A DNA stretch of 64,000 bases from an uncultured Psychrobacter sp. (GTDB lineage: Bacteria; Pseudomonadota; Gammaproteobacteria; Pseudomonadales; Moraxellaceae): NCBI RefSeq assembly GCF_947501045.1, contig NZ_CANMUI010000009.1. One strand, 5' to 3'. This document shows, one piece after another, positions 9,689 to 27,868 of the stretch. The first letter of the stretch is position 1. The number at the start of each line of letters is the position of its first letter. Made by a program: the position numbers and the translations under genes. The notes below the pieces were generated by a model, which had not been told where the DNA came from, did no database searches, and saw only the letters and a list, made by a program, of their open reading frames with translations.

Positions 9689-11251
9689 ATGGAAGGTTTA
9701 GTTAATCTAGCAAACGGAATTATTTGGAGCCCAGCACTGGTCTATTTGTGTTTGGGCGCAGGTTTGTTTTATTCTATTTTAACGCGCTTTGTACAAGTGC
9801 GTTTATTCGGTGAGATGATTAGACTTTTATTTAAAGGTAAACCCGATAATGCGGGTATCTCATCGTTTCAGGCATTAGCCGTCTCACTCGCAGGTCGTGT
9901 GGGTATGGGTAACATCGCAGGTGTCGCCGCTGCTATTGGTTTCGGTGGTCCAGGCGCGGTATTTTGGATGTGGGTAGTGGCCTTTTTAGGCGCTTCCACC
10001 GCTTATGTCGAATCCACACTAGGTCAGATTTACAAAGAGCGCGATGTCGTCACAGGCGAGTATCGCGGTGGCCCAGCTTATTACTTTGAGCGCGCTCTTG
10101 GTCAAAAATGGTACGGTGTTGTCTTTGCCATCGCCTCTATTATTGCTTGTGGGGTGTTCCTGCCTGGCGTGCAAGCGAACGGCGTTATCAATGCAGTGGC
10201 TCAGGTCGCAGGTGAAGGTTCAGCGATAAACTTTGTAGGTATGGAAACAGGTTCGACTCGTCTTATTGCCCTAGGTATTATTTTAGTGGTTTTAGGTTTT
10301 ATCATTTTTGGTGGTATTAAGCGTATCGCAACCTTTACTGAGTATGCCGTACCCTTTATGGCAGTAGGCTATATTATCCTAGCTCTGCTTATTATGTTTA
10401 CTAACTTTAGTATGATTCCTCAAGTGTTCGGTGCGATCGTTGGCGACGCTTTTACCGCGCAAGCAGGTTTCGGTGCAGCAATTGGTTGGGGTGTCAAACG
10501 TGGTATTTACTCCAATGAGGCTGGTCAAGGTACAGGCCCTCACGCAGCATCAGCAGCTGCAGTTGATCATCCCGCGCAGCAAGGTTTGGTGCAAGCCTTT
10601 TCAGTATATGTCGATACCTTGTTAGTTTGTTCTGCGACAGCTTTTATGATCCTATCAACGGGTATGTATAACATTCAAGGTACACTAGGCGAAGGTCAAT
10701 TTATCGTCCAAAACGTCGCTGCGGATGTCGAGATCAACTCGCCATCATTTACGCAAATGGCCATGGAATCTGTCTATGGCACGTTTGGTAATACCTTTAT
10801 TGCTATTGCGGTGTTCTTCTTTGCCTTTACCACTATCTTAGCGTACTACTATATCGCTGAGGTCAACATCTCCTATCTAACCCGCTCTATGGGTAAAGGG
10901 GCCAGTAAGACTGGTCAATTTATCGTTAAATTGATTATTATGTTTATGGTCGCTTATGGTGCGCTCAATAGCTCAGGCTATATCTGGGGCCTTGGTGATG
11001 TCGGCGTTGGTCTAATGGCGTGGCTCAATATCGTTGGTATCATTATTATCTTCTTCGTTGCCCGTCCTGCTATCGACATTTTGCGAGACTATGAAGCGCA
11101 GCTTAAAGCAGGTGGCGGTACCAGTTATAAGAGATTTGTCTTTGATCCTAAGAAATTTGGTATCAAAAACGCCACTTATTGGGAAGAGCGTCATGCAAAA
11201 GAAGAAGAGCTTTTAAGACAAGAGTCGTTACGCAAAACACCTCGATCTTAG
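9689..11251 (+). CDS. alanine/glycine:cation symporter (AGCS family), paralog 2
   Basis: About 75% identical to paralog 1 over the full length (my estimate by eye). Same motifs. Confidence 0.85.
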   Translation: MEGLVNLANGIIWSPALVYLCLGAGLFYSILTRFVQVRLFGEMIRLLFKGKPDNAGISSFQALAVSLAGRVGMGNIAGVAAAIGFGGPGAVFWMWVVAFLGASTAYVESTLGQIYKERDVVTGEYRGGPAYYFERALGQKWYGVVFAIASIIACGVFLPGVQANGVINAVAQVAGEGSAINFVGMETGSTRLIALGIILVVLGFIIFGGIKRIATFTEYAVPFMAVGYIILALLIMFTNFSMIPQVFGAIVGDAFTAQAGFGAAIGWGVKRGIYSNEAGQGTGPHAASAAAVDHPAQQGLVQAFSVYVDTLLVCSATAFMILSTGMYNIQGTLGEGQFIVQNVAADVEINSPSFTQMAMESVYGTFGNTFIAIAVFFFAFTTILAYYYIAEVNISYLTRSMGKGASKTGQFIVKLIIMFMVAYGALNSSGYIWGLGDVGVGLMAWLNIVGIIIIFFVARPAIDILRDYEAQLKAGGGTSYKRFVFDPKKFGIKNATYWEERHAKEEELLRQESLRKTPRS

Positions 11252-11291
11252 ATTTTACGTAAACGCTATTTAAACTTTATTAGTAATCATC

Positions 11292-11322
11292 AAAAAGCCC
11301 GTGATCAAGTCACGGGCTTTTT
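11292..11322. terminator. rho-independent terminator (GCCCGTGA-loop-TCACGGGC + T-run), bidirectional between convergent genes
   Basis: AAAAAGCCCGTGATCAAGTCACGGGCTTTTT read from sequence. Confidence 0.6.
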
Positions 11323-11521
11323 GATGGAGCTTTATAATTGATACAAGCGTGGTTTTAGCCAGAACTGTACCTATCTTATAAATGTAGTTCATCAAACCAG
11401 GTAATAATAGATTATTATTTAGACAAAAAAAGGTTTGATACTCAAGTTAATGAATATCAAACCAATATTAGCTTCATTCAAAAATCGTATTTTAAACTCA
11501 GCACATTATTATGATTTGCCT

Positions 11522-12145
11522 TTATTCAGGAACTAATACTGCATCGATAATATGAATAACGCCGTTAGTAGCTTGTACATCTGGCTGAGTAATATTTGCA
11601 GTGCCACCACCAGAAGCTGTAATCACATTATCTTCACTAATAGTAAAGGCATCGCCGTTTACTGTTTCGATATCGCTACCGTAAGGGATATCAGTTGCCA
11701 TCACTGTAGCATCAGGAACCACATGATAAGTCAGTACAGTAGTTAATAAGTCGGTATCAGCTAGTAGTTCATCTTGAGTCACACCAAGCGTTTCTAACAA
11801 AGCAGCAAAGGCATCGTTAGTTGGAGCAAACACAGTAAACTGACCATCTGATGCTAGTGTTTGATCAAGACCAGCTGCCTGCAGAGCGGCAACTAGTGTC
11901 GATAAGTCTGGGTTACCTGCAGCAACTTCAGTAATATTCTGCGTGGCCATAGGATCAGCCATAGGATCGGCTTCTACTGGGTCAGCCATAGGATCAACTT
12001 CAGGAGCCGGTTCCACAACTTCTACAACCTCAGTTTCAGCAACATCAGCTACTGGCTCATCTTGTACGGTTTCATTGTTGCTACAGGCTGCTAATGGTAA
12101 TACAGCCATAGCAAACGCTAGTGGTAATAAATTCTTCTTTAACAT
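11522..12145 (-). CDS. fasciclin (FAS1) domain lipoprotein
   Basis: Lipobox LAAC. FAS1 motifs TVFAPTNDAF and ATNGVIHIIDAVL. DPMADP tandem repeat in the linker. Confidence 0.75.
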   Translation of the reverse strand: MLKKNLLPLAFAMAVLPLAACSNNETVQDEPVADVAETEVVEVVEPAPEVDPMADPVEADPMADPMATQNITEVAAGNPDLSTLVAALQAAGLDQTLASDGQFTVFAPTNDAFAALLETLGVTQDELLADTDLLTTVLTYHVVPDATVMATDIPYGSDIETVNGDAFTISEDNVITASGGGTANITQPDVQATNGVIHIIDAVLVPE

Positions 12146-12255
12146 GAGTACTTCCTTATAAATAGTAATTGAATAATTTTTTATTCAATATAGTTCTATA
12201 ATATATAGTGTTACAAAACCAGCTAAAAACTGGGCGTTGTATTAATAGCGGGTAC

Positions 12256-12840
12256 TTATTTTGGTAGCAGTACCGTGTCAATTACGTGTACTACACCATT
12301 AGTAGCGGCAAGATCAGTCTGTAAAATGTTTGCAGTACGACCATTTTCATCCATTAGCGTGCCTTGAGGGGTCACCACTAAGGTGTCTGTACTAAGCATG
12401 ACAACATTGCCAGGCCTAACGTCTTTGGCATATACTGGCATATTGGCATTGATAACGTGATAGCCTAAGATTTTAGTTAATAAAGCCTTATCAGCAAATA
12501 GCTGCTCTTTAGTCATTCCAGTATCTTGTAATACCTTTGCAAAAGCCTCGTTAGTTGGTGCAAAGATAGTATAATTAGCACTAGGCTCAGACAAAATACC
12601 AGCTAAATTTGCTGCTTGTACTGCCTCGACTAATAAAGAGAAGTCTGGATTACTTTGAGCAATTTGTACTACATTAACATTCGATTTGGTCATATTGGCT
12701 TGAGCTGCAGGTTGGCTTTGAGCCGTCGGTGCAGGCTGCGCCATTGGAGCTTCTTCTGCCGCCATCATATTATTACAAGCCGTTAGACCAGCAAGTGAGA
12801 TGGCTAGAGTACCAATAGTAGCTACTTTGGTAAGTTTCAT
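12256..12840 (-). CDS. fasciclin (FAS1) domain lipoprotein, tandem paralog
   Basis: Lipobox LTAC. TIFAPTNEAF and ATNGVVHVIDTVL. Confidence 0.75.
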   Translation of the reverse strand: MKLTKVATIGTLAISLAGLTACNNMMAAEEAPMAQPAPTAQSQPAAQANMTKSNVNVVQIAQSNPDFSLLVEAVQAANLAGILSEPSANYTIFAPTNEAFAKVLQDTGMTKEQLFADKALLTKILGYHVINANMPVYAKDVRPGNVVMLSTDTLVVTPQGTLMDENGRTANILQTDLAATNGVVHVIDTVLLPK

Positions 12841-13447
12841 ACTTATATCCTTAATAATGAGGTGTATCCTACGTGTTGACTAATGTGTTATATCCTAAGA
12901 CAGCATCTTTATTTAGATCAATTACTGTAAAAAGAAATAAATTTTGAACAGTATAAGTCTAAAAAACTAAAACAAAGTTTATTATTTAGACTAATATTGG
13001 AATTAGTTAACTAAAAATCCTTATTAGTCAAAAACCTTAAATATATAAAATACTGTAAGATGCTAATCTTTATGGTTGTAAACTAACATAGAACTTTGCT
13101 GTAACGCGCCATTGTTACGCTACTTTTTGTGAGACGCTTGTAAGTTTTGTCTATTTTTCAAGAGCATTGTTAAGCTTCTATAACTTTTAACTAAAGAAAA
13201 GCCCTTTAAAAGTAAATTAGTTACACTTCTTTTAACCTTTAAAATATGATTTGATTGAGATTACTTTGAATTTTCAGCGCCAAATAACTAATGCTAAATA
13301 CTCACGCTAAATAAAGCTAAACTATACAGTCATGAACGATTTGTAGTTCATGCTAGACTACTACTAATTTATAATTCTCTATCTATAAAACTTTACGCCT
13401 TTTACCTCTTTTCCCTTTACAACCTTGATGATATAAGCAGTACTTCT

Positions 13448-16400
13448 ATGATTTCACAAAACCCTTTGCAAACTACTACCCCCTCACCTTCAGACAATCC
13501 TAATAATTTTATATTAACTCCGCCAGCTAGCTTTCCCTTTAAGGAAAAGCAGCTGGCCGCGCGTGCACGTATTACCGAGCAAATGAAGGCACGTATTTTG
13601 ATGCTTGATGGCGCGATGGGCACGCATATTCAGAACTATAAGCTAGAAGAAGCGGACTATCGTGGTGAGCGTTTTGCAGATATTAGCCAAGACGTGCGTG
13701 GTAATAACGATTTGCTCGTGTTAACCCAGCCACAAATGATTAAAGAGATTCATAGCGATCATCTAAAAGCGGGTGCAGATATCATCGAGACCAATACCTT
13801 TAACGGTACGCGGCTATCGATGGCTGACTATGACATGGAATATCTAGTACCAGAATTAAATAAGACCGCCGCCAAAATAGCTCGCGACATCGCCGATGAA
13901 TTTACCACCCAAAACCCAGATAAGCCGCGTTTTGTCGCTGGCGTCATTGGTCCGACCTCGCGTACCTGCTCGCTCTCCCCTGATGTCAACGATCCGGCGT
14001 ATCGCAACGTAACCTTTGATCAGTTAGTAGATAATTATCGTGAAGCGACGTTAGCGCTCATTGAAGGTGGCGTCGATATCATCTTGATTGAAACTATCTT
14101 TGATACGCTAAATGCCAAGGCCGCCATCTTTGCCGTTACTGGCGTGTTTGACGATATTGGCTTTGAATTACCGATTATGATTTCGGGTACGATTACCGAT
14201 GCCTCAGGCCGTACGCTATCTGGTCAAACCGCTGAGGCATTTTATAACTCGATTCGCCATGCCAAGCCGTTATCAGTTGGCTTCAACTGTGCGCTTGGTG
14301 CTGATGCGCTGCGCCCGCATATCCAAACGTTATCTAATATTGCTAATACGTATGTCTCCGCGCATCCGAACGCGGGCTTGCCCAATGAGTTTGGTGAATA
14401 TGATGAGACGGCAAAGGAAACCACTGCCCTGCTAGAAGGCTTTGCCAAAGCGGGTATCCTCAATATTGTTGGCGGCTGCTGTGGTACCACCCCTGAGCAT
14501 ATTCGTCAAATTGCTAATATGGTGGCAAAATACCCACCGCGCGAGATTCCTGAGATAGCACCTGCTTGTCGTCTGTCTGGGCTTGAGCCATTTAACATTA
14601 CTTCTGATAGCTTGTTCGTCAACGTTGGTGAGCGTACCAACGTCACTGGCTCGAAGAAATTCTTACGGTTAATTAAAACCGAAGCCTATACTGAAGCACT
14701 TGATGTCGCACGCGATCAGGTCGAAGGCGGCGCGCAAATCGTCGATATCAATATGGATGAGGGTATGCTCGACTCTGAGCAGGCGATGATTCATTTCGTC
14801 AATCTAGTATCCGGTGAGCCGGATATCAGCCGCGTGCCCTTGATGATTGATTCTTCTAAATGGGAGATTATTCAAGCGGGTCTTAAGCGCACGCAGGGTA
14901 AATGCGTGGTCAACTCCATCTCCCTAAAAGAAGGCTATAATGAGTTCGTCGAGCGCGCTAGGCTCTGTATGCGTTACGGCGCGGCAATTATGGTGATGGC
15001 CTTTGACGAAGACGGTCAAGCCGACACTTACGAGCGCAAAATAGAGATTTGCCAGCGCAGTTATGACATCTTGGTCGATGAAGTTGGTTTTCCTAGTGAG
15101 GATATCATCTTTGACCCCAACATCTTTGCCGTCGCCACCGGTATCACCGAACACAATAATTACGGCGCGGACTTTATCAATGCCACACGCTGGATAACCG
15201 AAAATCTACCCAATGCCATGGTATCGGGCGGCGTCTCTAACGTCTCCTTTAGCTTCCGTGGTAATCCAATTCGTGAAGCCATAAACTCAGTATTTCTCTA
15301 CCACGCTATTAAGAACGGTCTGACCATGGGTATCGTCAACCCTTCTATGTTAGAGATTTATGATGATATTCCCAAGGACGCCCGCGACGCTATCGAAGAC
15401 GTCATGCTCAATCGCAACCAAGGCGAAACTGGGCAAGATGCGACCGAACGCCTGATGACTATCGCTGAGAACTACCAAGACGATGGTAAGAAAAAAGAAA
15501 GCACCGTTGATCTATCTTGGCGTGAGCAGAGCGTAGAAAAACGCATCGAGCATGCACTGGTCAAAGGCATTACCACTTATATTGACGCCGATACCAAAGA
15601 GGCTTGGGAGAAATATCCCAAACCGCTCGATGTCATCGAAGGGCCATTGATGGACGGGATGAACGTGGTTGGTGACTTATTTGGCGCAGGTAAAATGTTT
15701 TTACCGCAAGTGGTCAAATCCGCGCGGGTGATGAAGCAATCGGTAGCGTGGCTAAACCCGTACATCGAAGCGGAAAAAGTCGAGGGCGAGGTTAAAGGTA
15801 AAATCCTGATGGCAACCGTCAAAGGTGACGTGCATGATATCGGCAAAAATATCGTCGGCGTGGTACTCGGCTGTAATGGCTACGACGTCGTTGACCTCGG
15901 CGTGATGGTGCCGTGTGAGAAAATCCTCGATACCGCTATTAGCGAGAAAGCCGATATCATCGGACTGTCGGGTCTGATTACTCCCAGCCTCGATGAGATG
16001 GTCTATGTCGCCAAGCAAATGCAAGAGCGCGGCATGAACCTGCCCCTGATGATTGGCGGCGCTACCACCTCAAAAGCACATACCGCGGTCAAAATTGAAC
16101 CGCATTACCAAAACGATGCGGTCATCTACGTCAGTGACGCCTCACGTTCGGTCGGTGTGGTCACCAAACTGCTCTCCAAACAGAACCGTCAAGAGCTGAT
16201 TGACGAAACCCGCGAAGAGTACATAACAGTCCGTGAGCGCCTCGCCAAACGCCAACCAAAAGCGGCGAAGATATCTTATGCTGATGCTATCAAAATTGGC
16301 TTTAAAGCTGACTGGGACAACTACGTGCCACCCGTGCCTAATAAACTCGGACAAGTGATATTTGATGATTATCCTATCACCAATCTGCTGCCTTATATCG

Positions 16401-17239
16401 ACTGGACACCGTTCTTTATCTCTTGGGGCCTGACAGGTAAATACCCAAAAATCTTGCAAGATGACGTGGTCGGCGAAGCGGCACGCGATCTGTTTGAGAA
16501 TGCGAATGACTTAATGCAAAAAATGATAGATGAAAAATTAATCGTTGCCAAAGGTGTGTTTAAACTCATGCCAGCCAAACGCACTGGCGCGGATACGGTA
16601 ACCGTCTATGACAACAGTCCAGCTGATGGCGGCAAGCCGACCTATCAGTTTGAGCACTTACGTCAGCAAAGCGACAAAGCCAGTGGCAAGCCAAACTTTA
16701 GCTTGGCAGACTTTATCTCACCATCGGACACCCATACCGATTACTTAGGTGGCTTTACGGTGTCGATCGTTGGGACAGAAGCACTGGCTGAAAAGTACAA
16801 AGAGGCAGGCGATGACTATAACGCTATCATGGTGCAAGCTTTGTCCGACCGCTTGGCCGAAGCCTTCGCTGAGCACTTGCATGAGCTGATTCGCAAAGAT
16901 TATTGGGGCTATCAGGCTGACGAGAATTTAACCAATGATGAGATGATCAAAGAAAAATATGTCGGTATTCGCCCTGCACCGGGCTACCCTGCCTGTCCTG
17001 AGCATACCGAAAAAGGTAAATTGTTTGACTGGCTCGGTACGGTTGATGCAATTGGTACTAGATTGACTGAAAGCTATGCAATGTGGCCTGCATCATCGGT
17101 CAGCGGCTTTTATTACTCGCACCCTGATAGTGAATACTTTAACGTCGGTAAAATCGACCGCGACCAGTTAGAAGATTATGCCAACCGTAAGGATTGGGAT
17201 ATTAGGACGGCTGAGAAGTGGTTAAATCCGAATTTGTAA
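13448..17239 (+). CDS. metH: cobalamin-dependent methionine synthase
   Basis: Full-length MetH. Hcy-binding domain ([18 protein letters not shown]). Pterin, B12-binding ([19 protein letters not shown]) and AdoMet-activation domains. Start may lie at 13448 or at a nearby alternative codon. Confidence 0.95.
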
Positions 17240-17264
17240 GAATAATTTTTACTAGTTTAAGAAA

Positions 17265-17296
17265 AAGGGATTTCAATCTTTAGAAATCCCTTTTTT
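17265..17296. terminator. bidirectional rho-independent terminator (AAGGGATTTC-loop-GAAATCCCTT + T6)
   Basis: 10-bp perfect stem and 8-nt loop, with T/A runs on both sides, between convergent metH and the PHP-ATPase gene. Confidence 0.65.
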
Positions 17297-17318
17297 AAAT
17301 TTTATTTATACTTAGTCA

Positions 17319-20300
17319 TTATGCTAAACCATACTTTCTTTGTCTATTAATAAATGCTGGTACAGTCCCTTCTAAAACATTAATAATGTGTTGCTTGATT
17401 GTTGGGTTTTCAATAGATCCAGAAATATAAGATATCTTCTTACCAGTATCACGTTCAAACTCTGCATATATAATCTGTTCAGCATCACAAACAACTGCTA
17501 GATTAGGATTATGAGTCACCATAATGACCTGGCGTTTTTTCTTAGCCTCTTTAATTATGGGCACTAAAATATCGTAAATAGTTTGATTATCTAAGTTTTC
17601 TTCTGGCTGATCTATCAATAAAGGATTGTTAGATTTATCTAACAGCAAAAAGAGGATTAATAGCAGCTCTCCTCTTTGTCCTGGCGATAAATAGTCTACA
17701 TCAACACCATCGTACTGAATGCGATTTTGTATTTCAAGATACTCAAATGAATAAATAAAACGGAATAAATCTTCTAATCTTGCTTTGTCCTTTACAATAT
17801 TTTTTAACCTTACATCACCTAACCCATCAAGTTCTTGCAGTACATTAATAAATTTTTCAGGAAAGCTTTCAAAGCAAATGCTACCATTCTCATCAATTAA
17901 GCACTCATCAATAGTTTTATAAATATTATCAATATTTATAACCTTATGTCTTAAATTTATTAAGTTTGCAAGTCTCAATCTAAAAAAATCTTTATCAAAT
18001 TTTACATAAGCTTCAAAGTTTAGCTTAACATTAATACCTCTTGATATAATATTTTGAATTTCCTGTACAATACCGCTAAACATCTCTTCTCTTTTATATA
18101 ACTTTAAATTTATTTTATCTAAAATACTTTTAGATTCTTCTTTTATTTTTCTATTAGTTTCTTTTAAATACTCTTCATATTTTTCCAAGTTAGATGCTTC
18201 AATTTCCAACTGTTTAATTGACGAATTAGCTTTAGAAATTAATTTTTCTAGGTCGTACATCCTATTACGCTTTTCGCCTAACTCATTATTTTTTTCATTA
18301 AGAGCTTTTGATTTGATTTTATAGGCATCATTAGCTAAATTAAATTCCTCACTAACTCTAATAGCATGCTGTCTCTTAGTATTTATATCTTCTTCAATTA
18401 ATTTAATTTTTGATTGTATTAAAGCATCATCGAAATTGAAGCTGATAATCTCGTCAATAGGTATTTCAAAATCAATCAGAAATCTATTTTTAAAATCTTC
18501 TTTTTGCGCCTCATAACTTACTTTAATTCGCTTTAGTTCATCAATAGCATTTTCGAATTTCATTAATTGATTTGACAGATCAATATAAACTCCATCAGCA
18601 ACAGTTTTATGATTAAAAGCACTCATCATCTCTATATGAGCTAGCTCTACATCTTTCATTAATGGGTCATCAAGACTACCGTAAATATCAGTATTTAAAT
18701 CTTGCATTTCATTGCTAGCTTTCTCTAGTTTTTCACGTTCAAGAGCCAAACTATTATTTATTTTAACCTCGTTTTCTGATGTAGTTTTATTTAAATAACT
18801 AACTATCTCACTACTTATCAACTCAATCCTACCTTTAATATCCAAGATATCTTTATTAATGGTTCTTTCGTCTTGGCTAATAAATGCATTATAGTCGTTG
18901 TTACCTAAAACTTTATCACTTGGTACATGACTAAAAACAATACTGTTAATTTGGCTCTGAAATGCGTTACTACTTAAGTCGCTACATAGCTCTTCAAAAT
19001 AACCTTGTGGAATATAAGTAATTCTATCTTTTACATTTGCATCGTTTTTACACAAGTGTGATTCCAAGTTTTCAGAATTACTCATAAAATCCAAATTTAC
19101 TTTATAATTACTGCCAATATTCAATGTGTCAAATTTTTTGACAAAATTGTTGTATTTAATATCTGTTTTGTCTTCGAACACGTGTGAAATAATATCTATA
19201 AATGCACTTTTACCACTACCTTTGTTTCCAATAATGGCTACTAAGTCACTATTTAATTTTTGTTCTATATTTTCGAACCACTCTCCAGCTGTTTCTGAAC
19301 TGTGATTACTAATACAGACTCTGTCTAAGTATTTTTCTGAATTACCTTCAATGGCTTTCAATTTGTCTGGTTTATCGCCTATAAAAGACCTATTTGAAGG
19401 CTCTCTAATAGCTTGTAATAAACCTTCGAAGGTAGTGTCAGCTTTTATCCAGGTTTTATTATTACCAGGAAATACTGCATACCCTCTATCTTCTCCACTA
19501 GTTTTGAACCTATGAGCATCGCTACCCCTTACTGCCAAACAAGGTTTATCTCCTAAGCAGTATTGAAACTCCTTCAAAAAATTTTTGTTATTATCTGTTT
19601 CTACATTTTGAAAAGTTAAAGCTTCTTCTTGATTTTTAACCTCAAAGATGTTAGCAAATTTCATTAGTTTGAAAACGTACTGATAGTTATCTTTTGAAAA
19701 ACTAGTCGCTCCTCCATGAGTACTCCAAGCTAAATACGGAACTGCCCTATCAGGATACATATTTACTGCTTTCTCCCAAGATTCAACAGTTACTTCAGCT
19801 TTCTCCTTACTAGCAGTTAAAGCATCTTCGTCATTTTTCTTGACATCGCCTTTAACATCTTTAGTATTACTATCAGGTAATTTACGTATATATTCAATTA
19901 AAGACTTATTCGATAATGGCTTATCTATTAAATCAAGAATTAGGTTACTCTTAAAATCACTTAAATCAGTAATACTTATATCATTAGAGAAAACTACATG
20001 AGCATTCAATCTAGGTAGTTTTGATGAAGATAGTCTAAGTTCGATTCCAGGGAAAACTACTTTATTTAATTTTGGTGAATTAGGCATGTCTAATCTATTT
20101 TTTAATGCTATCCAGCCATCAAATGTAAAGTAATCCATCAATACGAAAACATCAGCATCTGCTTTGTTCAAAGCTTCAATCATCTCATCAATAATCTCTA
20201 TGTCTACTTGAGTATTCAAATTGGGGTTATTTAGCTTACGACTACCTCTCCAATTAAACGAAGCAGGTGTGTGTACATGAAAATCCCAAACCCTCCACTC

Positions 20301-20327
20301 TGAACCTCTTTGAAATTCTTGTTCCAT
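17319..20327 (-). CDS. PHP-domain phosphoesterase fused to SMC/Rad50-like ABC ATPase with long coiled coil (Ppl/TrlF-like candidate anti-phage protein)
   Basis: N-terminal PHP motifs (WDFHVHTP ... GSDAHRF). Walker A GNKGSGKS. About 330 aa of K/E/N-rich coiled coil. C-terminal ABC signature LSPGQRGE, Walker B LLIDQPEENLD and H-loop VTHN. About 28% GC against 45-50% in flanks. Confidence 0.7.
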   Translation of the reverse strand: MEQEFQRGSEWRVWDFHVHTPASFNWRGSRKLNNPNLNTQVDIEIIDEMIEALNKADADVFVLMDYFTFDGWIALKNRLDMPNSPKLNKVVFPGIELRLSSSKLPRLNAHVVFSNDISITDLSDFKSNLILDLIDKPLSNKSLIEYIRKLPDSNTKDVKGDVKKNDEDALTASKEKAEVTVESWEKAVNMYPDRAVPYLAWSTHGGATSFSKDNYQYVFKLMKFANIFEVKNQEEALTFQNVETDNNKNFLKEFQYCLGDKPCLAVRGSDAHRFKTSGEDRGYAVFPGNNKTWIKADTTFEGLLQAIREPSNRSFIGDKPDKLKAIEGNSEKYLDRVCISNHSSETAGEWFENIEQKLNSDLVAIIGNKGSGKSAFIDIISHVFEDKTDIKYNNFVKKFDTLNIGSNYKVNLDFMSNSENLESHLCKNDANVKDRITYIPQGYFEELCSDLSSNAFQSQINSIVFSHVPSDKVLGNNDYNAFISQDERTINKDILDIKGRIELISSEIVSYLNKTTSENEVKINNSLALEREKLEKASNEMQDLNTDIYGSLDDPLMKDVELAHIEMMSAFNHKTVADGVYIDLSNQLMKFENAIDELKRIKVSYEAQKEDFKNRFLIDFEIPIDEIISFNFDDALIQSKIKLIEEDINTKRQHAIRVSEEFNLANDAYKIKSKALNEKNNELGEKRNRMYDLEKLISKANSSIKQLEIEASNLEKYEEYLKETNRKIKEESKSILDKINLKLYKREEMFSGIVQEIQNIISRGINVKLNFEAYVKFDKDFFRLRLANLINLRHKVINIDNIYKTIDECLIDENGSICFESFPEKFINVLQELDGLGDVRLKNIVKDKARLEDLFRFIYSFEYLEIQNRIQYDGVDVDYLSPGQRGELLLILFLLLDKSNNPLLIDQPEENLDNQTIYDILVPIIKEAKKKRQVIMVTHNPNLAVVCDAEQIIYAEFERDTGKKISYISGSIENPTIKQHIINVLEGTVPAFINRQRKYGLA

Positions 20328-20506
20328 AGATACCGTCTCTAACTATTAAGCTTTTAGTTAATCATAATTTTAAGAATTGATCAGTTTATTGATTTATATA
20401 CAAAAATGCAACTGAACTGTTAATTTTAGTTCATTAATAATTACAGCCGAGTTACAACAAACTTAGCAGTAATGCTACCTTTATCTTCCTTCTCTAATAA
20501 TATCAA

Positions 20507-20548
20507 GTTAGAAAACGTGGTGATTTTCATTGTCTTAATTTTAGCTTA
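20507..20548. repeat. direct repeat S1 (GTTAGAAAACGTGGYGRTTTTCWATTGTCTTRATTTTRGCTTAG), copy 1 of 2
   Basis: About 85% identical to S2 at 21126-21168. Overlaps the stop of the diverged DUF2256-like ORF. Confidence 0.5.
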
Positions 20549-20734
20549 GTCCATCTTACACCGCAGACAACGCTCTAAACAATAAGTCTCTTTATTTCGC
20601 TGATAAGGTAGATATTTTATGAAATTGGTGCGCTGGGCGCAGCCTACGCCAAATTTTGCAGTGCATATGCTATTTGAAGGCTTATTTTTTGTAGGTTGGT
20701 GTCGAGGCACGAGACCCAACAATTTATAAATCAA
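20546..20734 (-). pseudogene. diverged or degenerate DUF2256-like small ORF (possible pseudogene)
   Basis: N-terminal KNKPSNSIC and C-terminal YCLERCLRCK resemble the intact neighbour ([10 protein letters not shown] ... [10 protein letters not shown]). The first CxxC is disrupted. Confidence 0.3.
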
Positions 20735-20745
20735 AAATATATAAT

Positions 20746-20809
20746 CGGTGGGTTACGCCTTGTCTGCATTCTCTGCGAGAATTTGACAAGTCTAACACCA
20801 CCCTACTTC
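20746..20809. repeat. 64-bp imperfect palindromic repeat R1
   Basis: CGGTGGGTTACGCCTTGTCTGCATTCTCTGCGAGAATTTGACAAGTCTAACACCACCCTACTTC. Nested inverted arms (CTTGTC/GACAAG, ATTCTC/GAGAAT, GGTGGGTTA/TAACACCACC). Three copies within 0.8 kb. Confidence 0.6.
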
Positions 20810-21125
20810 AAACGTTAGTTTACCAGCCAAGTCAAAGTTAGAAAATTAAGCAATATTGAATAACGACTATTATTAGCAAGGATACGATGTTGCCGTTAGC
20901 CCTGATTGTAGCGGTTATCCTTGGTTGACCACTAGATTGCGGTGACTTAGCTAGGAGCGATATCGAGGCAACAGGAACGCTACTGGCTATTAGTCACCGC
21001 TCTAGTGGGCGACCAAGATATGAGCGAAAAGCAGGATTGGCTACTTACTACTTTTTAGGTTCTAAATAAGCTATAATCATTTTAACAGCACCGCCGCCTC
21101 TACCTTCTTCAGCTGGCAACATTGG

Positions 21126-21168
21126 GTTAGAAAACGTGGCGGTTTTCTATTGTCTTGATTTTGCTTAG
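21126..21168. repeat. direct repeat S2, copy 2 of 2
   Basis: See S1. Confidence 0.5.
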
Positions 21169-21216
21169 GTCGCATAGAGTTGGTCATTTAACATTTAGAT
21201 TTAGCATGATTTAAAA

Positions 21217-21280
21217 CGGTGGGTTACGTCTTGTCTGCATTCTCTACGAGAATTTGACAAGTCTAACGCCACCCTACTTC
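21217..21280. repeat. 64-bp imperfect palindromic repeat R2
   Basis: About 94% identical to R1. Overlaps the stop codon of the DUF2256 gene. Confidence 0.6.
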
Positions 21281-21414
21281 CTTTTCGCCCGCCGACACCG
21301 CTCAGAACAATAAACCACATTATCCCAATCCTTCTCCCATTTCTTACGCCATGTAAAAAGTCGCTGGCAGACAGGGCATATTTTCTGGGGTAGATTTTGT
21401 TTTTTGTGTGCCAT
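21274..21414 (-). CDS. DUF2256-type zinc-ribbon protein (46 aa: [46 protein letters not shown])
   Basis: Matches the DUF2256 pattern (CPVC...FxWRKKW...YCSERCRR). The real start is the internal ATG of the 86-aa track ORF. Confidence 0.7.
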
Positions 21415-21510: not shown

Positions 21511-21574
21511 CGGTGGGTTACGTCTTGTCTGCATTCTCTACGAGAATTCGACAAGCCTAACACCACCCTACCTC
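21511..21574. repeat. 64-bp imperfect palindromic repeat R3
   Basis: About 90% identical to R1/R2. Lies 19 bp downstream of the stop of the 2091-aa gene, so it may also act as its terminator hairpin. Confidence 0.6.
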
Positions 21575-21592: not shown

Positions 21593-24500
21593 CTACTCAT
21601 AATTATCAAATATTTTATTAAGCCGATTTAAGCTATTGACGATAAGCTTGCCCGATTGGTCGGTGCTGGTGTCGAGGGCGAGTTTTTCATCCATACGCAT
21701 ATTGAGCGGTTCTAGCGCTTGCTTAAGCGCGTTTGCCAAGAGCGCGGTTTGTTCCGTGATGTCGGGGATGTCGGTCTTAGAAGTTTGACTCTCAGCACTC
21801 TTAAACAGGCTATCGGCCATCTGCTGCGCCAGTTGCTCGACCGCGCTGACCAATTGCACCATGAGCTGCTTTTGGATATCTTGGTTTTGCTTGAGGTACT
21901 CCCCTTCTGCTTTATGGTCGTGCTTATAGATTTGTATCAGCTGGTTCATGCTTTTCTCAAAGCCGTTATCGATGCTGTCGCTAACAACTTTGGCGTTGTC
22001 TACAAAACCCGTGATAAAGCTGTCGGCGAGGATTTTTTGCGCCTCAAGCTGGGCATCGATTTGCGCTTGCTGTTCAGCGCCTCGCAAGTGGGCGATTTGT
22101 TCAGGGTCATTTTGGTTAAGGTATTTATCAAACTGACTACTAATAGCATTGAAGCCGCTGGCTAGGTCAACGAGCTGCGCGACGATACGTGCACCAGTGT
22201 CGCCATCTTCCCCGCCCATGGCTTTGTTACGTAAAAAGTCAGCTTTGATTTGCTCCCAGCGCTCTTTTTCTGTCTCCGTTAAGACATTACGCATCTCGCC
22301 AAGCTTAAGTAAGTTACTCTCTGCACCTTGGGTTAATAGCTGCGACTCGCCTAGATAGTGATCATCTACCAGCTGGTTCAGCTCTTGCGCATTCATGACC
22401 GCCGATAGCTTTTCGGTCATCTTATTCATATTACGGTAACTGCCTTGCAGCTTAAATATCGGCTCGACGCGATATTTATCATCTTGCGAAGCCGAGGCGA
22501 TGTAAGCTTGGTTGACGTCAAGGATGACTTCTTGCACGGTAAACATATGGCGCAAGATGGCGATAATTTCGTTAATCTCTGAGGTGCTATAAGGATAAGT
22601 CAGGTCGCTTGCTTGCGCGAGACTTTCGCTATTGGAACCGACGGCTTTTGCCATTTTTATGAGGCGATGGACGTCGCTCAAATCACGGTTGGCAAGTGGC
22701 GCGAGAACTTTGTTTGACGTCAACGAGTTTTCGATATAACTGAGCGCAAAGACTTCTTCCATACCGCTCATGATGTCGCCTAAGTTGTAGATGTCGGCGC
22801 GGTTGGCGAGCATGTCAGGGACTTTAAAGGCCTCACCGCTTTCGGTGTACGGGTTACCCGCCATGACCACGCAGAACTTCTTGCCACGCATATCATAGGT
22901 TTTGGTTTTGCCTTGCCAGACGCCGTCGATACGGCGTGTACCATCGCCAAGTGAGATAAACTTCTGCAAAAATTCGGCATGAGTATGCTGGATATCGTCC
23001 AGATATAGCATGACATTATTGCCCATCTCAAAGGCTAAGTTGATTTTATTCAGCTCTTCTCTAGCAGTGGCGTTGGGCGCTTTTTCGGGATCTAAAGAGG
23101 TGACGTCATGACCGAGGGAAGGACAATTAATCTTCATAAAGATGAGGCCAAGACGGTTTGCCACATACTCCATCAAGGTGGTTTTACCGTAACCTGGTGG
23201 CGATATCATCATCAGGATACCCATCGGATCGGTACGTTTATCTTCGCCGACCGTGCCCATTTGCTTAGCAAGGTTGTCGCCGATTAACGGCAGATAGCTC
23301 TCATTAATCAGACGGTTACGCACAAAGGATGACAGTGGACGTGGCATAAACTCATCCAATCGCAATGATTCTTTTGAGTCGTGCAATATCTCTGAGCGCA
23401 TGGCTAGATAGCGTCTGTAGGCAGGAATGACCTGTGTGTCATGATGGTGCAAACGATTTAAGAAATCATCGACAGCAAAGGTCAAAGTCTGCTGATGAAT
23501 GCGCTCATGTTCGCCTAGTAAGTTATTGACTTGTATTTCAAGCGACACTTTACCTATGCTGCGCTCAAAGCTCTGTACTTGATTGAGCGGATTATTGAGA
23601 CTGGTCAATGAGGTAGTGGCTGAGAATGACAAAGTAGACGGCGTGCCAGTAGCGCTCTTATCAAAGCTAATACCTGAGTCAATGAGACGTTGCACCAAGG
23701 CTTCACGTTGCCCATCATTTAATTGGGTGAGTAAGACCGCAATCGCTTCGGGCACATAGTGGCGGCCAATCTGCAATTGCTGTCTACGTAAGGCGGACTT
23801 TTCCTCAATTTCAGCAAGCTGTTCTTCACTGAGTGGTTTGCCTTCACTATCAGTACTATCTAATGGCTTATTGATTGTTTCGCTATCGCCATAGGTCTTA
23901 TCCAATAGCGCATGAAACCACGTTGCCAATAGCTCATAGGCTGATTTGGGCTGAAAGCCAAGTTTGCCGATTGAGGATCGTAATTGCTCAAAACTGGCAG
24001 CGTTCTGCGTACTGCCTGACGAACTATTTAGCGTTTGCGTCAGCTGCTCGCACAACTGCTGCGCTTGCTGACTGGTTTGCCATTCTATTTCTGTATTTGT
24101 GCCAGTACTTATGCCTGCATTTGGGCTACTCGCCTGCCCCATGACACTGACCAAGTATTCACTGGCAAGCTGAACGTAGCTTTGTTTAAAGATATTGGCG
24201 TTGTGAATGTCGCTGATGTCTAAATTCAGGTCTGAGCTGGAGTTGGATTCTGAGCCTAAATCTGAATCTGACTTCTTATTAGAATTGTTCTCGAGGCTAA
24301 TACTGTCGTTACTAAAGTTATCATCATTATAAGCAGAGACAAAGTTATGCATAACCTCCGTCATATCTTCTACTAGCAAGGCTTTGGCGGTATCACTACC
24401 TAAGCTACGACGCAATTGCTCGGCGGTGATGGCTCTATCCGTCCAGTTACTCACGCGCGTTAGTACGGACTCATTTAGCCAGTTATCGTAACCAAATTGA

Positions 24501-27500
24501 CGTAATCCATTTAAACCGAGTGCTTTTACTAGGCTCAACTGCCAATAGAACAGCTGCGCCAACGCACGTACTTGCGGGGTATAAATGAGCAAGCCAGCTT
24601 CGCGCAAAGTCGGTAGTATTTGCAGCAATAGCAATGTTGCATCATGGTCATGAATGCCTTTGTCATAACCGAGCTGATAACGTGGTGTGGCGTAAGCTTT
24701 GACCAGTTTGGCAAGAGGGCTATCATCGATGTCGCCATTACTATCAATAGTGCTACTAACACTGCTATTAATAGTACTAACAGTGTCGTCATAAGCTTGA
24801 TATAGGCGCGACTCGGTCAAGCCATCTTGACTGTTTTTGGCACTTTCGATAATGCTATACGCTAGGTATTCGGCGCGGTAGACGGTATCGGACTCGGAGG
24901 CGATGTTCATATCCCAATACGGACGCAAAGCGTTTAATTCGGCATTGTCCAATACTTCATAATAATCTGTGCCCGTTAAATGCAGATTAAGGACGCGTTT
25001 GCCGTCTGTCTGCCCACGACTTAGTAAGGTCAAATCCAATGGCTGAGTATTGACCGAAAAGCGGTGCTTGCCAAGCTTGATGATTTGACCACCATCTTCA
25101 AACAAATCTGACTTGTCTTTTAGGCTCTTATAACTCTCGATTTGAATGGCTTTTAAGCGCGCATCAATATCATCTGCTTTGACACTAAAGCCTAATGTTA
25201 GCAGCTCTTTGGCGATGCTACGAACTTTTTGCACTAGGCCATCTGAGGCAAAGTAAGTATTTAAAGCTTCTTCCTCTGTGAAGCCTGTTACGCCTGTGCT
25301 TTGCGTGCGTTTTTTGATGCTCTCCAGCATACGTAGTGCGCCATCACCTAAGTTTTGTGCCTTACGGTTGCGGGCATCGAGCAATTGCTGCTTATGATTT
25401 TCAAAGGTTTCGTAAATCTCTTCACGCTTGCTGATAATGTCGGCTAAAAACTGATCGCCACTATTAGTCTCTGGGTCAGCAAACTGGCTCTCTAACTCTT
25501 CTAACTGCACCAGCAATTTTGCCATTTGCTCATCTGACTTCTCAGGCGTATTGGCAATGGATAAAGCATTGGCAATGGATTGACCAAACAGTTTAAATTG
25601 CGCGCCAAATTGCGCCACGGCTTCAGCTGAGCCTAAGCTTTTACGTTTATGATTTAGCTTAGCTTTACTTTGATTGAGACTCGCATAGATGGTCGAGATG
25701 TCATCGATAATTTGCGTGCGTACCGTGGCATCGGCGACGTCTAGTGTACCTAGCAGCTCGGTCAACAAGTCTAAACCTTGAGCGGTCTCATCGATTTTTT
25801 CTAATACTGGCTTGAGCTCGGCATTGGTCTCGCTCGTATTTAAACGCTCACTAACATCTGCTAACACCCCTTCGTAGCTTGATAGCGCCTCTTCACCACT
25901 TAGAAATAGTACGGTTTTTTCGGCAAGCTCGCTCTCTGCTGCTTCTAGTTGTGTTTGTAGCGCTACTAATTTATCGCTATCTAAATAACGTAAATCTTCC
26001 AAGCTGACCAAGCGGCCTTTTTGCCGTCTTAACGCCGACAATTGATCAACATAGTCACTGGCCGACTCAAAAGTAGTGACTCTTATCTGCCGCAATATTT
26101 CATTCTGCTGGGCTTCAGCATCGGCTATAGCGGTTTGAGTTTGCTTTTGAATACTTTGTACTTTGGCAAATTCATCAATGACCAGCTCAGCAGTGGCCGT
26201 CACCTCTTTGATACTACCTGCAATCTCGGTCAGCTCAGGTTCAGATAGCCAATAATAGCTATCAAAGAGACGGCTAGTATTGTCGGCTAATTCTTCATAG
26301 AGCTTTTGTGACACGCTTTGATTGTCAATGAGGCGGGTGATGCTATAGAGATCTGAGATGCCGCGCACCAATTCTTTATTGCCAATTTTGCCATAGAAGC
26401 TCGTGCTTTCAGGTAATTCACTGACATACTCAGGAGAGGCATAAGGGGTATGCCATATCTGCATCGGGTGAATGCGTGATGGTTCACTTTGGGCGCTGAA
26501 CAGTACCAAGCGACCATTTTCTGCCAGTGCCATACCATTACAATAAATGGGGTTTGCCAGTTGTTTTTTGATAAGGTTATAAGGGAATAACCCCGTGATG
26601 CCCAACGCCACGTCATAGAATAAGAATAAAACGTCTTCGCCGTTGGGTGAGACGATTTTACGCTTAAATTGTAAGTTCTTTTCATTGCCATTATTGGCAT
26701 CGACGTTCTGAGCATCAAACAGTTTATGTTCGCCAGTTTGCAAGTAATAACCGCCCGGGAAGATAATGCCGTGATCTTCGGGTAGCTGGACACAAGATTG
26801 GCCGATGGCATCCAGTCGCAGCACTTCTTCAGTCAAGGTGTTGTAGACGAAATAGCGATGACTGTCTTCACGATACGGCAAAATCTTTAACAATATTAAA
26901 CTACCAACTTTGGCATAAGAAATCTCAGCATCTGTCAGAGATTGCGTACTATCACTAACGGGTTCGCTATAAATTCCTAGCCCTGATTGAGTATTATCTT
27001 CAATTTTAATGGTCAAACTGCCGCTAACAGTTTCTACAAATATCGTATCTAAGATATTCATATGCGGGTATTTGCCATTGATCATCTGATCACGAGTAGT
27101 CTCAGTCCAATCAAAATCATAGGCTGGCGGCAACTCGATATCGCGCTCACCTCTATTATCTACATAGGCGACTTGGGCGGATTCTGGTGTGCCTTCGCTA
27201 AAGTCTAGGGCAAAACGAAACACTCGAATATCGGTGATACGTTCACCGATCTGAAATGCTAATAGCAGCTTGCTGTCTTTAACGGTCAGTTGAATCAAGC
27301 GCGTTTGCTTGTAATATCTATACAGCTCATTAAAGTCTTGTACAAAGGCTTGTTGATCTAAAAATGTGCCCGTTAAATCGACCTCTTCAAGCTGGTAGTC
27401 TTTCTCAACATCGTTACTGTTATTATCAGGCTTCGTATTATCAGACTCTATCAAACGATACAACGACAGCACATCTTTGACATTGCTCGCGCGTTTAAGA

Positions 27501-27868
27501 CCCATAAAGACGTTGTAGCCGAATAGCAAATAGCCACCGACCTGCACCATATCCTGCGCCACACAGTTGTGTTCGGTGCGAATACGAGTACGAGCTGTCA
27601 CTTGCATTTGAGTGCTACCAAACTCTTCAAGACGCGCGTTATTCAGGGTAGCGGTCTGTTGCTCTAAACGGCTGCCCTGCTCCGTTAGACGTTTTTTGAT
27701 GAGCTCATAGGCATTGCCGGCGGCAACAGCCTGATCAGTTTGACCGGTTTGTTCAGCTTGATTGGCTTGGCTATCGTTGCTTGGGCTATCTGAATTGGTT
27801 GAGTTTTGCGTATCCGCCATCGTGAGTCGTCCACTTCTGTTTTTATATAATAAGAGAGTTTTGCGCAA
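21593..27868 (-). CDS. giant (about 2090 aa) coiled-coil protein with internal MoxR/dynein-type (AAA_5-like) AAA+ ATPase domain; function unknown
   Basis: Walker A SPPGYGKTT. Walker B VMLYLDD. Sensor-1/MoxR signature FCVVMAGNPYTE...VPDMLANRA (compare MoxR ATQNP.E...LPEA.LDRF) at about aa 1500-1700. Long E/Q/L-rich helical stretches before and after. N-terminal 500 aa unrecognised. First codon is TTG; the first ATG is 48 nt downstream (27820). Confidence 0.6.
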   Translation of the reverse strand: MRKTLLLYKNRSGRLTMADTQNSTNSDSPSNDSQANQAEQTGQTDQAVAAGNAYELIKKRLTEQGSRLEQQTATLNNARLEEFGSTQMQVTARTRIRTEHNCVAQDMVQVGGYLLFGYNVFMGLKRASNVKDVLSLYRLIESDNTKPDNNSNDVEKDYQLEEVDLTGTFLDQQAFVQDFNELYRYYKQTRLIQLTVKDSKLLLAFQIGERITDIRVFRFALDFSEGTPESAQVAYVDNRGERDIELPPAYDFDWTETTRDQMINGKYPHMNILDTIFVETVSGSLTIKIEDNTQSGLGIYSEPVSDSTQSLTDAEISYAKVGSLILLKILPYREDSHRYFVYNTLTEEVLRLDAIGQSCVQLPEDHGIIFPGGYYLQTGEHKLFDAQNVDANNGNEKNLQFKRKIVSPNGEDVLFLFYDVALGITGLFPYNLIKKQLANPIYCNGMALAENGRLVLFSAQSEPSRIHPMQIWHTPYASPEYVSELPESTSFYGKIGNKELVRGISDLYSITRLIDNQSVSQKLYEELADNTSRLFDSYYWLSEPELTEIAGSIKEVTATAELVIDEFAKVQSIQKQTQTAIADAEAQQNEILRQIRVTTFESASDYVDQLSALRRQKGRLVSLEDLRYLDSDKLVALQTQLEAAESELAEKTVLFLSGEEALSSYEGVLADVSERLNTSETNAELKPVLEKIDETAQGLDLLTELLGTLDVADATVRTQIIDDISTIYASLNQSKAKLNHKRKSLGSAEAVAQFGAQFKLFGQSIANALSIANTPEKSDEQMAKLLVQLEELESQFADPETNSGDQFLADIISKREEIYETFENHKQQLLDARNRKAQNLGDGALRMLESIKKRTQSTGVTGFTEEEALNTYFASDGLVQKVRSIAKELLTLGFSVKADDIDARLKAIQIESYKSLKDKSDLFEDGGQIIKLGKHRFSVNTQPLDLTLLSRGQTDGKRVLNLHLTGTDYYEVLDNAELNALRPYWDMNIASESDTVYRAEYLAYSIIESAKNSQDGLTESRLYQAYDDTVSTINSSVSSTIDSNGDIDDSPLAKLVKAYATPRYQLGYDKGIHDHDATLLLLQILPTLREAGLLIYTPQVRALAQLFYWQLSLVKALGLNGLRQFGYDNWLNESVLTRVSNWTDRAITAEQLRRSLGSDTAKALLVEDMTEVMHNFVSAYNDDNFSNDSISLENNSNKKSDSDLGSESNSSSDLNLDISDIHNANIFKQSYVQLASEYLVSVMGQASSPNAGISTGTNTEIEWQTSQQAQQLCEQLTQTLNSSSGSTQNAASFEQLRSSIGKLGFQPKSAYELLATWFHALLDKTYGDSETINKPLDSTDSEGKPLSEEQLAEIEEKSALRRQQLQIGRHYVPEAIAVLLTQLNDGQREALVQRLIDSGISFDKSATGTPSTLSFSATTSLTSLNNPLNQVQSFERSIGKVSLEIQVNNLLGEHERIHQQTLTFAVDDFLNRLHHHDTQVIPAYRRYLAMRSEILHDSKESLRLDEFMPRPLSSFVRNRLINESYLPLIGDNLAKQMGTVGEDKRTDPMGILMMISPPGYGKTTLMEYVANRLGLIFMKINCPSLGHDVTSLDPEKAPNATAREELNKINLAFEMGNNVMLYLDDIQHTHAEFLQKFISLGDGTRRIDGVWQGKTKTYDMRGKKFCVVMAGNPYTESGEAFKVPDMLANRADIYNLGDIMSGMEEVFALSYIENSLTSNKVLAPLANRDLSDVHRLIKMAKAVGSNSESLAQASDLTYPYSTSEINEIIAILRHMFTVQEVILDVNQAYIASASQDDKYRVEPIFKLQGSYRNMNKMTEKLSAVMNAQELNQLVDDHYLGESQLLTQGAESNLLKLGEMRNVLTETEKERWEQIKADFLRNKAMGGEDGDTGARIVAQLVDLASGFNAISSQFDKYLNQNDPEQIAHLRGAEQQAQIDAQLEAQKILADSFITGFVDNAKVVSDSIDNGFEKSMNQLIQIYKHDHKAEGEYLKQNQDIQKQLMVQLVSAVEQLAQQMADSLFKSAESQTSKTDIPDITEQTALLANALKQALEPLNMRMDEKLALDTSTDQSGKLIVNSLNRLNKIFDNYE

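Follow-up and report, generated by a model that had tools for sequence, protein, structure and literature searches.

Ppl, found at P2/P4-type hotspots of Escherichia coli, is a validated single-gene anti-phage protein that restricts T7 and is countered by Bas63 gp130 (PMC11482910). A 2026 review describes it as a single-stranded DNA (ssDNA) 3'-5' exonuclease with PHP and nucleoside triphosphatase (NTPase) domains that is inhibited by nucleoside triphosphates (NTPs), and ascribes its activation to nucleotide depletion together with the 3'-OH ends that homing endonucleases of phages leave (PMC12904381); the original work, Xu et al., Mol Cell 2026, is cited in PMC13434339. TrlF is a much larger sister family of Ppl, named after a temperature-restriction operon, trlR-trlF-trlG of Photorhabdus laumondii (PMC7554251). 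In the searchable literature, TrlF appears as a gene in the Photorhabdus paper only. Here we analyze a 64-kb stretch (64,000 nucleotides, hereafter the window) of contig NZ_CANMUI010000009.1, from an uncultured Psychrobacter sp., in which a TrlF-family gene stands alone in a variable chromosomal slot next to metH. We consider it probable, largely by analogy with Ppl, that the encoded protein is a single-protein immune effector that targets the nucleic acids of phages or other mobile DNA. A role in defense or in conflict between elements is the best supported one because Ppl homology, the neighborhoods of the homologs, and their mobile carriers favor it together.

The gene is an intact, ATG-started open reading frame (ORF) at 17319-20327 on the minus strand and encodes 1002 residues plus the stop codon. 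Its guanine-plus-cytosine (GC) content is 30.3% overall and 0.226 at third codon positions (GC3), and a chance ORF is impossible because the frame stays open over 3 kb in 30% GC DNA. The 1002-residue AT-rich ORF proposed in an initial annotation, made from the sequence alone, is therefore real; the range given there, 17265-20520, also includes a terminator hairpin and ∼200 nt of upstream spacer. The protein matches the NCBIfam model NF045780 (TrlF family AAA-like ATPase) at 538.2 bits (E = 6e-161, cut-off 350), with residues 7-1000 aligned end-to-end to model positions 1-944 of 944, and its sequence is matched at 100% identity by the NCBI entry "TrlF family AAA-like ATPase [uncultured Psychrobacter sp.]". 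The Ppl model (NCBIfam NF042955) is also matched (E = 1.7e-26, best stretch residues 875-995), but at 92.5 bits against a cut-off of 1000, and membership in Ppl proper was rejected on this score. Ppl is likewise the best PADLOC model (PDLC02208, E = 7.8e-26, model positions 206-888 of 894), ahead of the ATPase components of other defense systems, and the match to the sister model Spaf_1101 is weak and partial (117 bits vs a cut-off of 475). By sequence, then, the protein belongs to TrlF and is a homolog of Ppl that lies outside the Ppl family; of the original label "Ppl/TrlF-like", the TrlF part stands at full length and above cut-off, while Ppl is retained as a weaker homolog. PHROGs holds no family for this protein or for its phage-borne homolog, and searches of the PDB by sequence or by family profile turned up no solved structure of either TrlF or Ppl. 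Public annotation already contains the architecture, the family name, and the exact sequence, and the present assignment adds little to it.

Because Pfam gave no PHP match for the protein even at E ≤ 1, the fold of the N-terminal domain was assessed by structure prediction. The domain (approximately residues 1-330; 19338-20327, minus strand) is predicted to adopt the distorted (beta/alpha)7-barrel of PHP proteins, with EndoQ and polymerase proofreading domains as the top PHP matches, and would be a metal-dependent nuclease or phosphoesterase. Both characteristic motifs, H17-V-H19 and G268-S-D270-A-H272, are present, and the full pattern of metal ligands can be traced: H17 and H19 on strand 1, D65, E96, H110, E229, and D270-x-H272. 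In an alignment of 54 family sequences, H17, D65, E96, H110, E229, D270, and H272 are invariant and H19 is kept in 53 of the 54. These observations agree with the complete PHP domain that the initial annotation had proposed for residues 1-320 from its HVH...GSDAH motifs, although the allocation of single residues to particular metal sites is best regarded as putative.

According to the predicted structure, the remainder of the protein forms an ABC ATPase of the SMC/Rad50 class, interrupted by a helical arm of ∼280 residues. The full-length model (predicted local distance difference test score, pLDDT, 85) places the PHP domain at 1-330, the ATPase N-lobe at 334-470, a set of long helices at 480-762, and the C-lobe at 769-1002. 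The N-lobe (18918-19328, minus strand), delimited from sub-threshold Pfam matches to AAA_29, SMC_N, and ABC_tran, invariant columns, and model secondary structure, carries Walker A G367-N-K-G-S-G-K-S374 and the Q-loop residue Q441. The C-lobe (17322-18023, minus strand), delimited from invariant columns, carries the signature L880-S-P-G-Q-R-G886, Walker B with the catalytic Glu (D906-Q-P-E909), an NLD D-loop, the H-loop residue H939, and a conserved C-terminal tail; it is the portion held in common with Ppl, Spaf_1101, and phage proteins. Walker A, Q441, the signature, D906-Q-P-E909, the D-loop, and H939 are all invariant across the same 54 sequences. Pfam itself returns ATPase families only for this protein, every one below threshold (SMC_N, AAA_21, AAA_29, ABC_tran). 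Between the lobes, the coiled-coil arm (approximately residues 480-762; 18042-18890, minus strand), delimited from the full-length model and Foldseek, comprises helices 488-514, 517-549, 555-620, and 635-762. A Foldseek search of the full-length model against the PDB recovers MukB, JetC, Rad50, SMC, and RecN with E-values between 1e-9 and 1e-6, and further matches include LmuB and AriA. The SMC/Rad50-type ATPase with a coiled-coil insertion and the Walker A, signature, Walker B, and H-loop motifs quoted at the outset are thus all present, and it is only the length of the coiled coil, first put at ∼330 residues, that needs correction.

The combination of a nuclease with an arm-bearing, Rad50-like ATPase also brings to mind SbcCD and Mre11-Rad50, and one could read the protein as a housekeeping DNA repair factor, a one-chain equivalent of these complexes that would act on DNA ends or hairpins in the host cell; EndoQ and the polymerase proofreading domains, which lead the PHP matches, are themselves enzymes of repair or replication. 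The likeness extends to an SMC/Rad50-class ATPase with an antiparallel helical arm and a metal-dependent nuclease. In SbcCD/Mre11-Rad50, however, the nuclease is a separate calcineurin-like subunit (Mre11/SbcD), whereas that of TrlF is a fused PHP domain, and the TrlF arm is far shorter. No Cys occurs between residues 449 and 808, so the arm contains none and the zinc hook, the CxxC motif expected at the arm apex of Rad50/SbcC, is absent; nor is any nuclease gene adjacent. "One-polypeptide analogue of SbcCD/Mre11-Rad50", as the protein was first described, is accordingly fair as an analogy, but homology by architecture does not follow, given a fused nuclease of another fold and no hook. Apart from the missing hook, the repair reading has to contend with the absence of TrlF at this locus in four close Psychrobacter species, with the foreign composition of the gene, and with the patchy distribution of the family over plasmids, phages, and restriction-modification (R-M) neighborhoods; TrlF is not a conserved housekeeping gene, and we regard a repair function as very unlikely.

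By structure and profile, the ATPase head and arm resemble those of JetC (Wadjet), LmuB (Lamassu), AriA (PARIS), and GajA/OLD-type proteins, to which the defense-island context of the TrlF family adds a further likeness, but these proteins act with separate partners or effectors (JetABD, LmuA/C, AriB, and GajB, respectively), whereas the TrlF effector is fused and has no partner nearby. Closest in design is Ppl, which is homologous in both of its models (E ∼1e-26) and shares with the window protein the PHP plus NTPase architecture and the single-gene organization. The two differ in that the window gene is chromosomal and Ppl sits in a prophage hotspot, and in that the match to the Ppl models is partial, confined mainly to the C-terminal 120 residues in NCBIfam. 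The Ppl mechanism as reviewed, in which NTP depletion and 3'-OH ends control a 3'-5' exonuclease acting on ssDNA, is the best model at hand for the window protein. On this model, and by extension from SMC/Rad50 biology, the ATPase heads of two protomers would dimerize around nucleotide through their Walker A and signature motifs; heads and arm would respond to the nucleotide status, to ends or unusual structures in DNA, or to both, and would then license the fused PHP domain for exonucleolytic degradation of invading DNA from 3' ends. The nuclease activity of TrlF, its substrate, its regulation by nucleotides, and its anti-phage phenotype are all presumed on the same analogy, and we infer the defense role from homology together with genomic context.

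Several observations weigh against this interpretation. No defense phenotype has been published for any TrlF member in the searchable literature. The PHP assignment is one of predicted structure and motif conservation, because PF02811 is not matched and because PDB searches with the single sequence and with a family profile gave zero PHP chains, only ABC, SMC, and AriA ATPases. The Ppl mechanism would be carried over a large distance, since the protein reaches ∼9% of the Ppl cut-off, and pairwise similarity with a phage-borne TrlF-family protein (described below) is significant in the C-terminal part only. The rest of the window is without a recognizable defense gene. Finally, the only genetics on a TrlF protein comes from the Photorhabdus trlR-trlF-trlG locus, where it was trlG to which the phenotype was mapped, and mutants in trlF did not turn up (PMC7554251).

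The Photorhabdus protein belongs to the same family by the curated full-length model that scores the window protein at 538 bits vs 350, and the locus that gave TrlF its name restricts growth at 36 °C: its deletion lifts the restriction and its transcription rises on temperature up-shift (PMC7554251). A stress- or temperature-triggered growth restriction, as in this TRL operon, would merit attention in a genus adapted to cold. The mapped mutations, though, all fall in trlG and none in trlF (PMC7554251), the window gene stands without homologs of trlG (AlbA_2 + HATPase_c_4) or trlR beside it, and TrlF is missing from most of the related Psychrobacter species examined; the two slots differ as well, after metH in the window and between polA and dsbA in Photorhabdus. 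We consider the temperature reading extremely unlikely for the window gene, and in our reading the Photorhabdus phenotype would also fit a toxic immune module that misfires under stress.

The genomic setting supports a view of TrlF as cargo. The gene order in the window is a 652-residue protein, a 2091-residue DUF3686/DUF7902/AAA protein, DUF2256, and TrlF, followed by the convergent metH (13448-17239; a 1263-residue methionine synthase by its Pfam domains), and the same order is found in two Psychrobacter metagenome-assembled genomes and in a metagenomic contig, L003, whose TrlF is 89.9% identical. For an empty-site comparison, we used MetH homologs (89-92% identical) to locate the region in four related Psychrobacter species: L092, L093 (P. 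jeotgali), L095 (Psychrobacter sp. SC65A.3), and L097 (P. celer). All four keep the left flank (an alanine:sodium symporter, two fasciclin genes, and metH) and the right flank (a methyltransferase where present, DUF2256, a TolB/Tricorn-like beta-propeller, and META, continuing with peptidase M24 and GlnD where the contigs reach that far). None of the four has TrlF in the slot. What follows metH is instead insertion sequence (IS) elements, an oxidoreductase, and a LysR regulator in L092, an SBF transporter in P. jeotgali and P. celer, and a 1242-residue PIN-TPR-GreABC protein in SC65A.3. In a DNA alignment of six loci, cross-species homology ends exactly at the metH stop codon, so that the left boundary of the variable cargo falls at position 17240, the first base past that codon. 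The sequence downstream of the stop, including a hairpin terminator between the convergent genes (17261-17296; a 14-bp stem followed by a T-run in a terminator scan), is common only to the TrlF-bearing relative L003, and by this comparison the hairpin belongs to the cargo and not to the conserved metH flank. Since homology stops at the metH stop codon and the cargo differs among relatives, TrlF is the cargo of a variable slot and not part of a conserved operon. The acquisition by horizontal transfer that the initial annotation had proposed is borne out, and related genomes do not hold the gene at native GC in a housekeeping operon.

The gene is also solo. No partner gene, TrlG, TrlR, or other, is adjacent to it: downstream lies the convergent metH, and upstream there are only repeats and DUF2256, so that the trlR-trlF-trlG arrangement of Photorhabdus is absent here. 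Near the gene there is no integrase, no flanking direct repeat, no phage gene, and no R-M system, and within 15 kb of it no tRNA gene, in keeping with the early description of a single gene outside any prophage. The other cargo genes of the locus have no PADLOC or NCBIfam match, and at 42-63 kb the ORFs that were examined encode housekeeping proteins (FtsK, amidase, EF-Tu, TrpE, a thioredoxin-reductase-like protein, and Aat). DUF2256, which lies 60 nt upstream of TrlF in L003, was considered as a partner and rejected: it is part of the conserved flank in Psychrobacter species that have no TrlF, and it is not recurrent elsewhere.

The time of arrival is a separate matter, and here the initial annotation, which took low GC as the mark of recent acquisition, is not supported. 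Its estimates were close for the gene itself (∼28%, against the computed 30.3%) and somewhat low for metH (∼45%, against 48.4%, with GC3 of 0.522), but the 2091-residue neighbor, put at ∼53%, has a GC content of 45.8% (GC3 0.488). The contrast with the surroundings is nonetheless real: a sliding profile runs at 0.25-0.32 over 17500-20500 and at 0.45-0.50 on either side, and the whole window averages 42.9%. Such a contrast fails to date the acquisition, however, because the whole family tends to be lower in GC than its hosts. Across 70 homolog loci (L011-L090), TrlF genes average 7.6 GC points under their own flanks; they fall more than 3 points below them at 56 of the 70 and rise more than 3 points above at a single one. 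Moreover, L003 carries the gene at the same locus, and its cargo and flank have diverged about as far as TrlF (89.9% amino acid identity): 84.6% for the DUF3686 protein, 89.8% for the 652-residue protein, and 93.2% for the MetH C-terminus. Between the two TrlF copies, GC3 is ∼0.23 in both, the synonymous divergence (dS) is 0.38, and the ratio of nonsynonymous to synonymous divergence (dN/dS) is 0.15. The simplest reading of these sequence comparisons is that TrlF had reached this locus by the time of the last ancestor common to both lineages, and that selection has kept it since; the gene is foreign to the genome but, on this reading, its acquisition is not recent. As to a donor lineage, none is suggested by the short contigs of the next-closest relatives (43-49% identity).

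The family at large is abundant and diverse. An exhaustive search of 1.84 billion cluster representatives (clusters at 50% identity) returned 1,348 proteins at E ≤ 1e-30, and among 600 stretches examined from representative genomes at least 577 encode a TrlF relative. Beyond the 100% match, the identity of the next relatives drops to 90%, to 85%, and then to 49% or less. To describe the genomic company of the family, 80 homolog loci were retained and their 102 tightly coupled same-strand neighbors were scanned against Pfam; the loci come from Proteobacteria, Bacteroidota, Planctomycetota, Verrucomicrobiota, Firmicutes, Cyanobacteria, Patescibacteria, and other phyla. The commonest neighbor families are ResIII (12), N6_N4_Mtase (8), SNF2 (8), AIPR (5), and Methylase_S (4), with HSDR_N, YhcG, and Fic at three each and single cases of type ISP, Mrr, UvrD, and PD-(D/E)XK. 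No family serves as a universal partner among the 102 neighbors. AlbA_2/TrlG-type proteins account for at most one of them, and because AlbA_2 is missing from the list of families seen at least twice, the trlR/trlG operon is not general to the family. A recurrent cassette, SNF2 - TrlF - (AIPR) - type III-like Mod - (YhcG nuclease) - Res, was observed at eight loci (L014, L020, L030, L038, L039, L047, L057, and L090, at about 5000-16600 in each), where the stop codon of the SNF2 gene overlaps the start of TrlF; the overlap suggests translational coupling within an R-M/DISARM-like operon.

This company allows the window gene to be read as the leftover or dependent component of a multi-gene system, whether trlR-trlF-trlG or an R-M/SNF2/AIPR cassette, that is inactive or only partly functional when alone. 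The type locus is a three-gene operon (PMC7554251), a tightly coupled same-strand neighbor is present at 57 of the 80 loci, eight loci share the cassette with the SNF2-TrlF overlap, and the window copy has no such gene beside it. Against this, the gene is intact and full-length by the family model with every catalytic residue in place, and it shows a dN/dS of 0.15 over a dS of 0.38 relative to L003, where the gene is likewise solo. Solo TrlF genes are in fact common, as 23 of the 80 loci are without a coupled neighbor; where neighbors do occur, they share no partner family, with TrlG-type proteins at or below one in 102, and the cousin Ppl, as far as the review describes it, works as a single gene. 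We therefore consider a leftover component unlikely.

The same neighborhoods, and the size and spread of the family over phyla, plasmids, and phages, would also fit a reading in which TrlF proteins form a distinct class of single-protein immune nuclease. RloC, a Rad50-like ATPase with a coiled coil joined to a nuclease, is often linked to type I or type III R-M genes, and many TrlF homologs show a similar linkage. RloC and PrrC are anticodon nucleases, and their nuclease domain is of a different kind from that of TrlF; the window gene also differs from them in having no R-M neighbor. In such a class, TrlF could serve within type I/III R-M and SNF2/AIPR cassettes as a back-up guard in the style of PrrC/RloC, the solo Psychrobacter gene, kept under purifying selection, would show that TrlF can also act on its own, and the trigger may differ from the sensing of 3'-OH ends and NTP depletion described for Ppl. 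We hold this to be possible, with the odds well against it, and the Ppl-like effector continues to be the interpretation we favor.

TrlF genes are also carried by mobile elements. Plasmids hold 181 full-length copies (at least 80% of the query), and of the 1151 plasmid records matched at any coverage 830 are of conjugative type. On an IncI plasmid, the TrlF gene is flanked on one side by a Gabija-like ATPase/UvrD pair and on the other by an Abi gene, and other plasmid copies adjoin integrases and IS elements. The closest annotated relative outside Psychrobacter is on Moraxella osloensis plasmid p1 (NZ_CP047227.1, 128 kb; L009, 6001-9257), where the gene, 56% identical over residues 1-519, is interrupted by a transposase and has IS3/IS66 elements around it. 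Relatives occur on 32 viral contigs as well. In the P2-like Yersinia phage vB_YenM_42.18, the gpA-gpQ hotspot is filled by a TrlF-family gene of 872 residues, annotated as "chromosome partition protein Smc" (OM046624.1, 8621-11239; L091, 1754-4372), whose product scores 465 bits against the TrlF model (cut-off 350) and 126 bits against Ppl, below the NCBIfam cut-off, and has a CehA/McbA-type (PHP-like) N-terminus.

One may ask from these carriers, and from the presence of JetC (Wadjet) and LmuB (Lamassu) among the best structural matches of the TrlF model, whether the protein acts mainly in mobile-element conflict, by analogy with the restriction of plasmids by the SMC-type system Wadjet, as an anti-plasmid system or as a stabilizer of its carrier element, rather than against phages. 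The plasmid copies and their conjugative records favor such a role. The window copy, however, is chromosomal with no mobile-element genes around it, the closest characterized relative, Ppl, is anti-phage, and a family member occupies a phage-borne anti-phage hotspot. A predominantly mobile-element role is in our view quite unlikely, and anti-phage and anti-plasmid roles are mutually compatible.

Several further features of the locus were recorded. The upstream spacer (20328-21273) holds no intact gene; it contains a degraded DUF2256 copy, two 57-nt palindromes, and a 149-nt hairpin, and is ∼0.95 kb long in the window vs 60 nt in L003, where an intact DUF2256 copy precedes TrlF. The palindromic array noted early on next to TrlF consists of three copies of a 57-nt element resembling repetitive extragenic palindromes or miniature inverted-repeat transposable elements (REP/MITE-like), at 20747-20803, 21218-21274, and 21512-21568, with the sequence GGTGGGTTACG.CTTGTC...GACAAG.CTAAC.CCACCC. 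The copies are confined to the intergenic stretches between TrlF, DUF2256, and DUF3686, the third lying just beyond DUF2256, and there are no others in the 64 kb. The DUF2256 zinc-ribbon genes are small (46-56 residues) and occur in one to three copies per Psychrobacter locus, with two or three in contigs that span the whole region, where they bracket variable segments; they may mark the recombination boundaries of the hotspot. In the window, the intact copy is at 21274-21414 (minus strand) and the degraded one at approximately 20546-20600 (minus strand), ending ...YCLERCLRCKMD; among relatives, DUF2256 is at 9782-9940 in L003 and is also found in L092, L093, and L095.

The 149-nt hairpin, at 20894-21042 on the plus strand, is near-perfect, with a free energy of -71.3 kcal/mol (z = -8.6). 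It matches the Rfam family Flavo-1 (RF01705) at 47.7 bits vs a gathering threshold of 42, and the conserved nucleotides fit on both sides of a 74-nt loop insertion. Flavo-1 is described as a multi-copy Bacteroidetes motif without known function, which makes a match in Psychrobacter taxonomically odd. The window contains a single copy, and the hairpin is also present in L001, which has the same arrangement and a 100% identical TrlF; it is absent from L003, L092, L093, L095, and L097.

The slot holds other cargo as well. A second module, made up of the 2091-residue DUF3686/DUF7902/AAA protein (21593-27868, minus strand) and the 652-residue protein (28166-30124, minus strand), is native-like in GC (0.46), is present in the TrlF-bearing relative at 85-90% amino acid identity, and is absent from the four other Psychrobacter species. 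The 652-residue protein has no Pfam, NCBIfam, or PADLOC match, and the term DUF3686 has no mention in the searchable literature. In L095 (CP106752.1), the PIN-TPR-GreABC gene at 13838-17566 starts 25 nt past the metH stop; it has no PADLOC match and is a candidate for another large conflict-type protein that occupies the hotspot.

TrlF is the larger of two sister families, and the mechanism of the other, Ppl, was published only in 2026. The locus described here is a clean natural example of a solo TrlF gene: it sits in a variable slot of the chromosome, is shared by two lineages under purifying selection, and keeps its motifs intact. It is thus a reasonable candidate for asking whether TrlF proteins are autonomous defense nucleases and whether the Ppl mechanism extends to the PHP-SMC superfamily as a whole.

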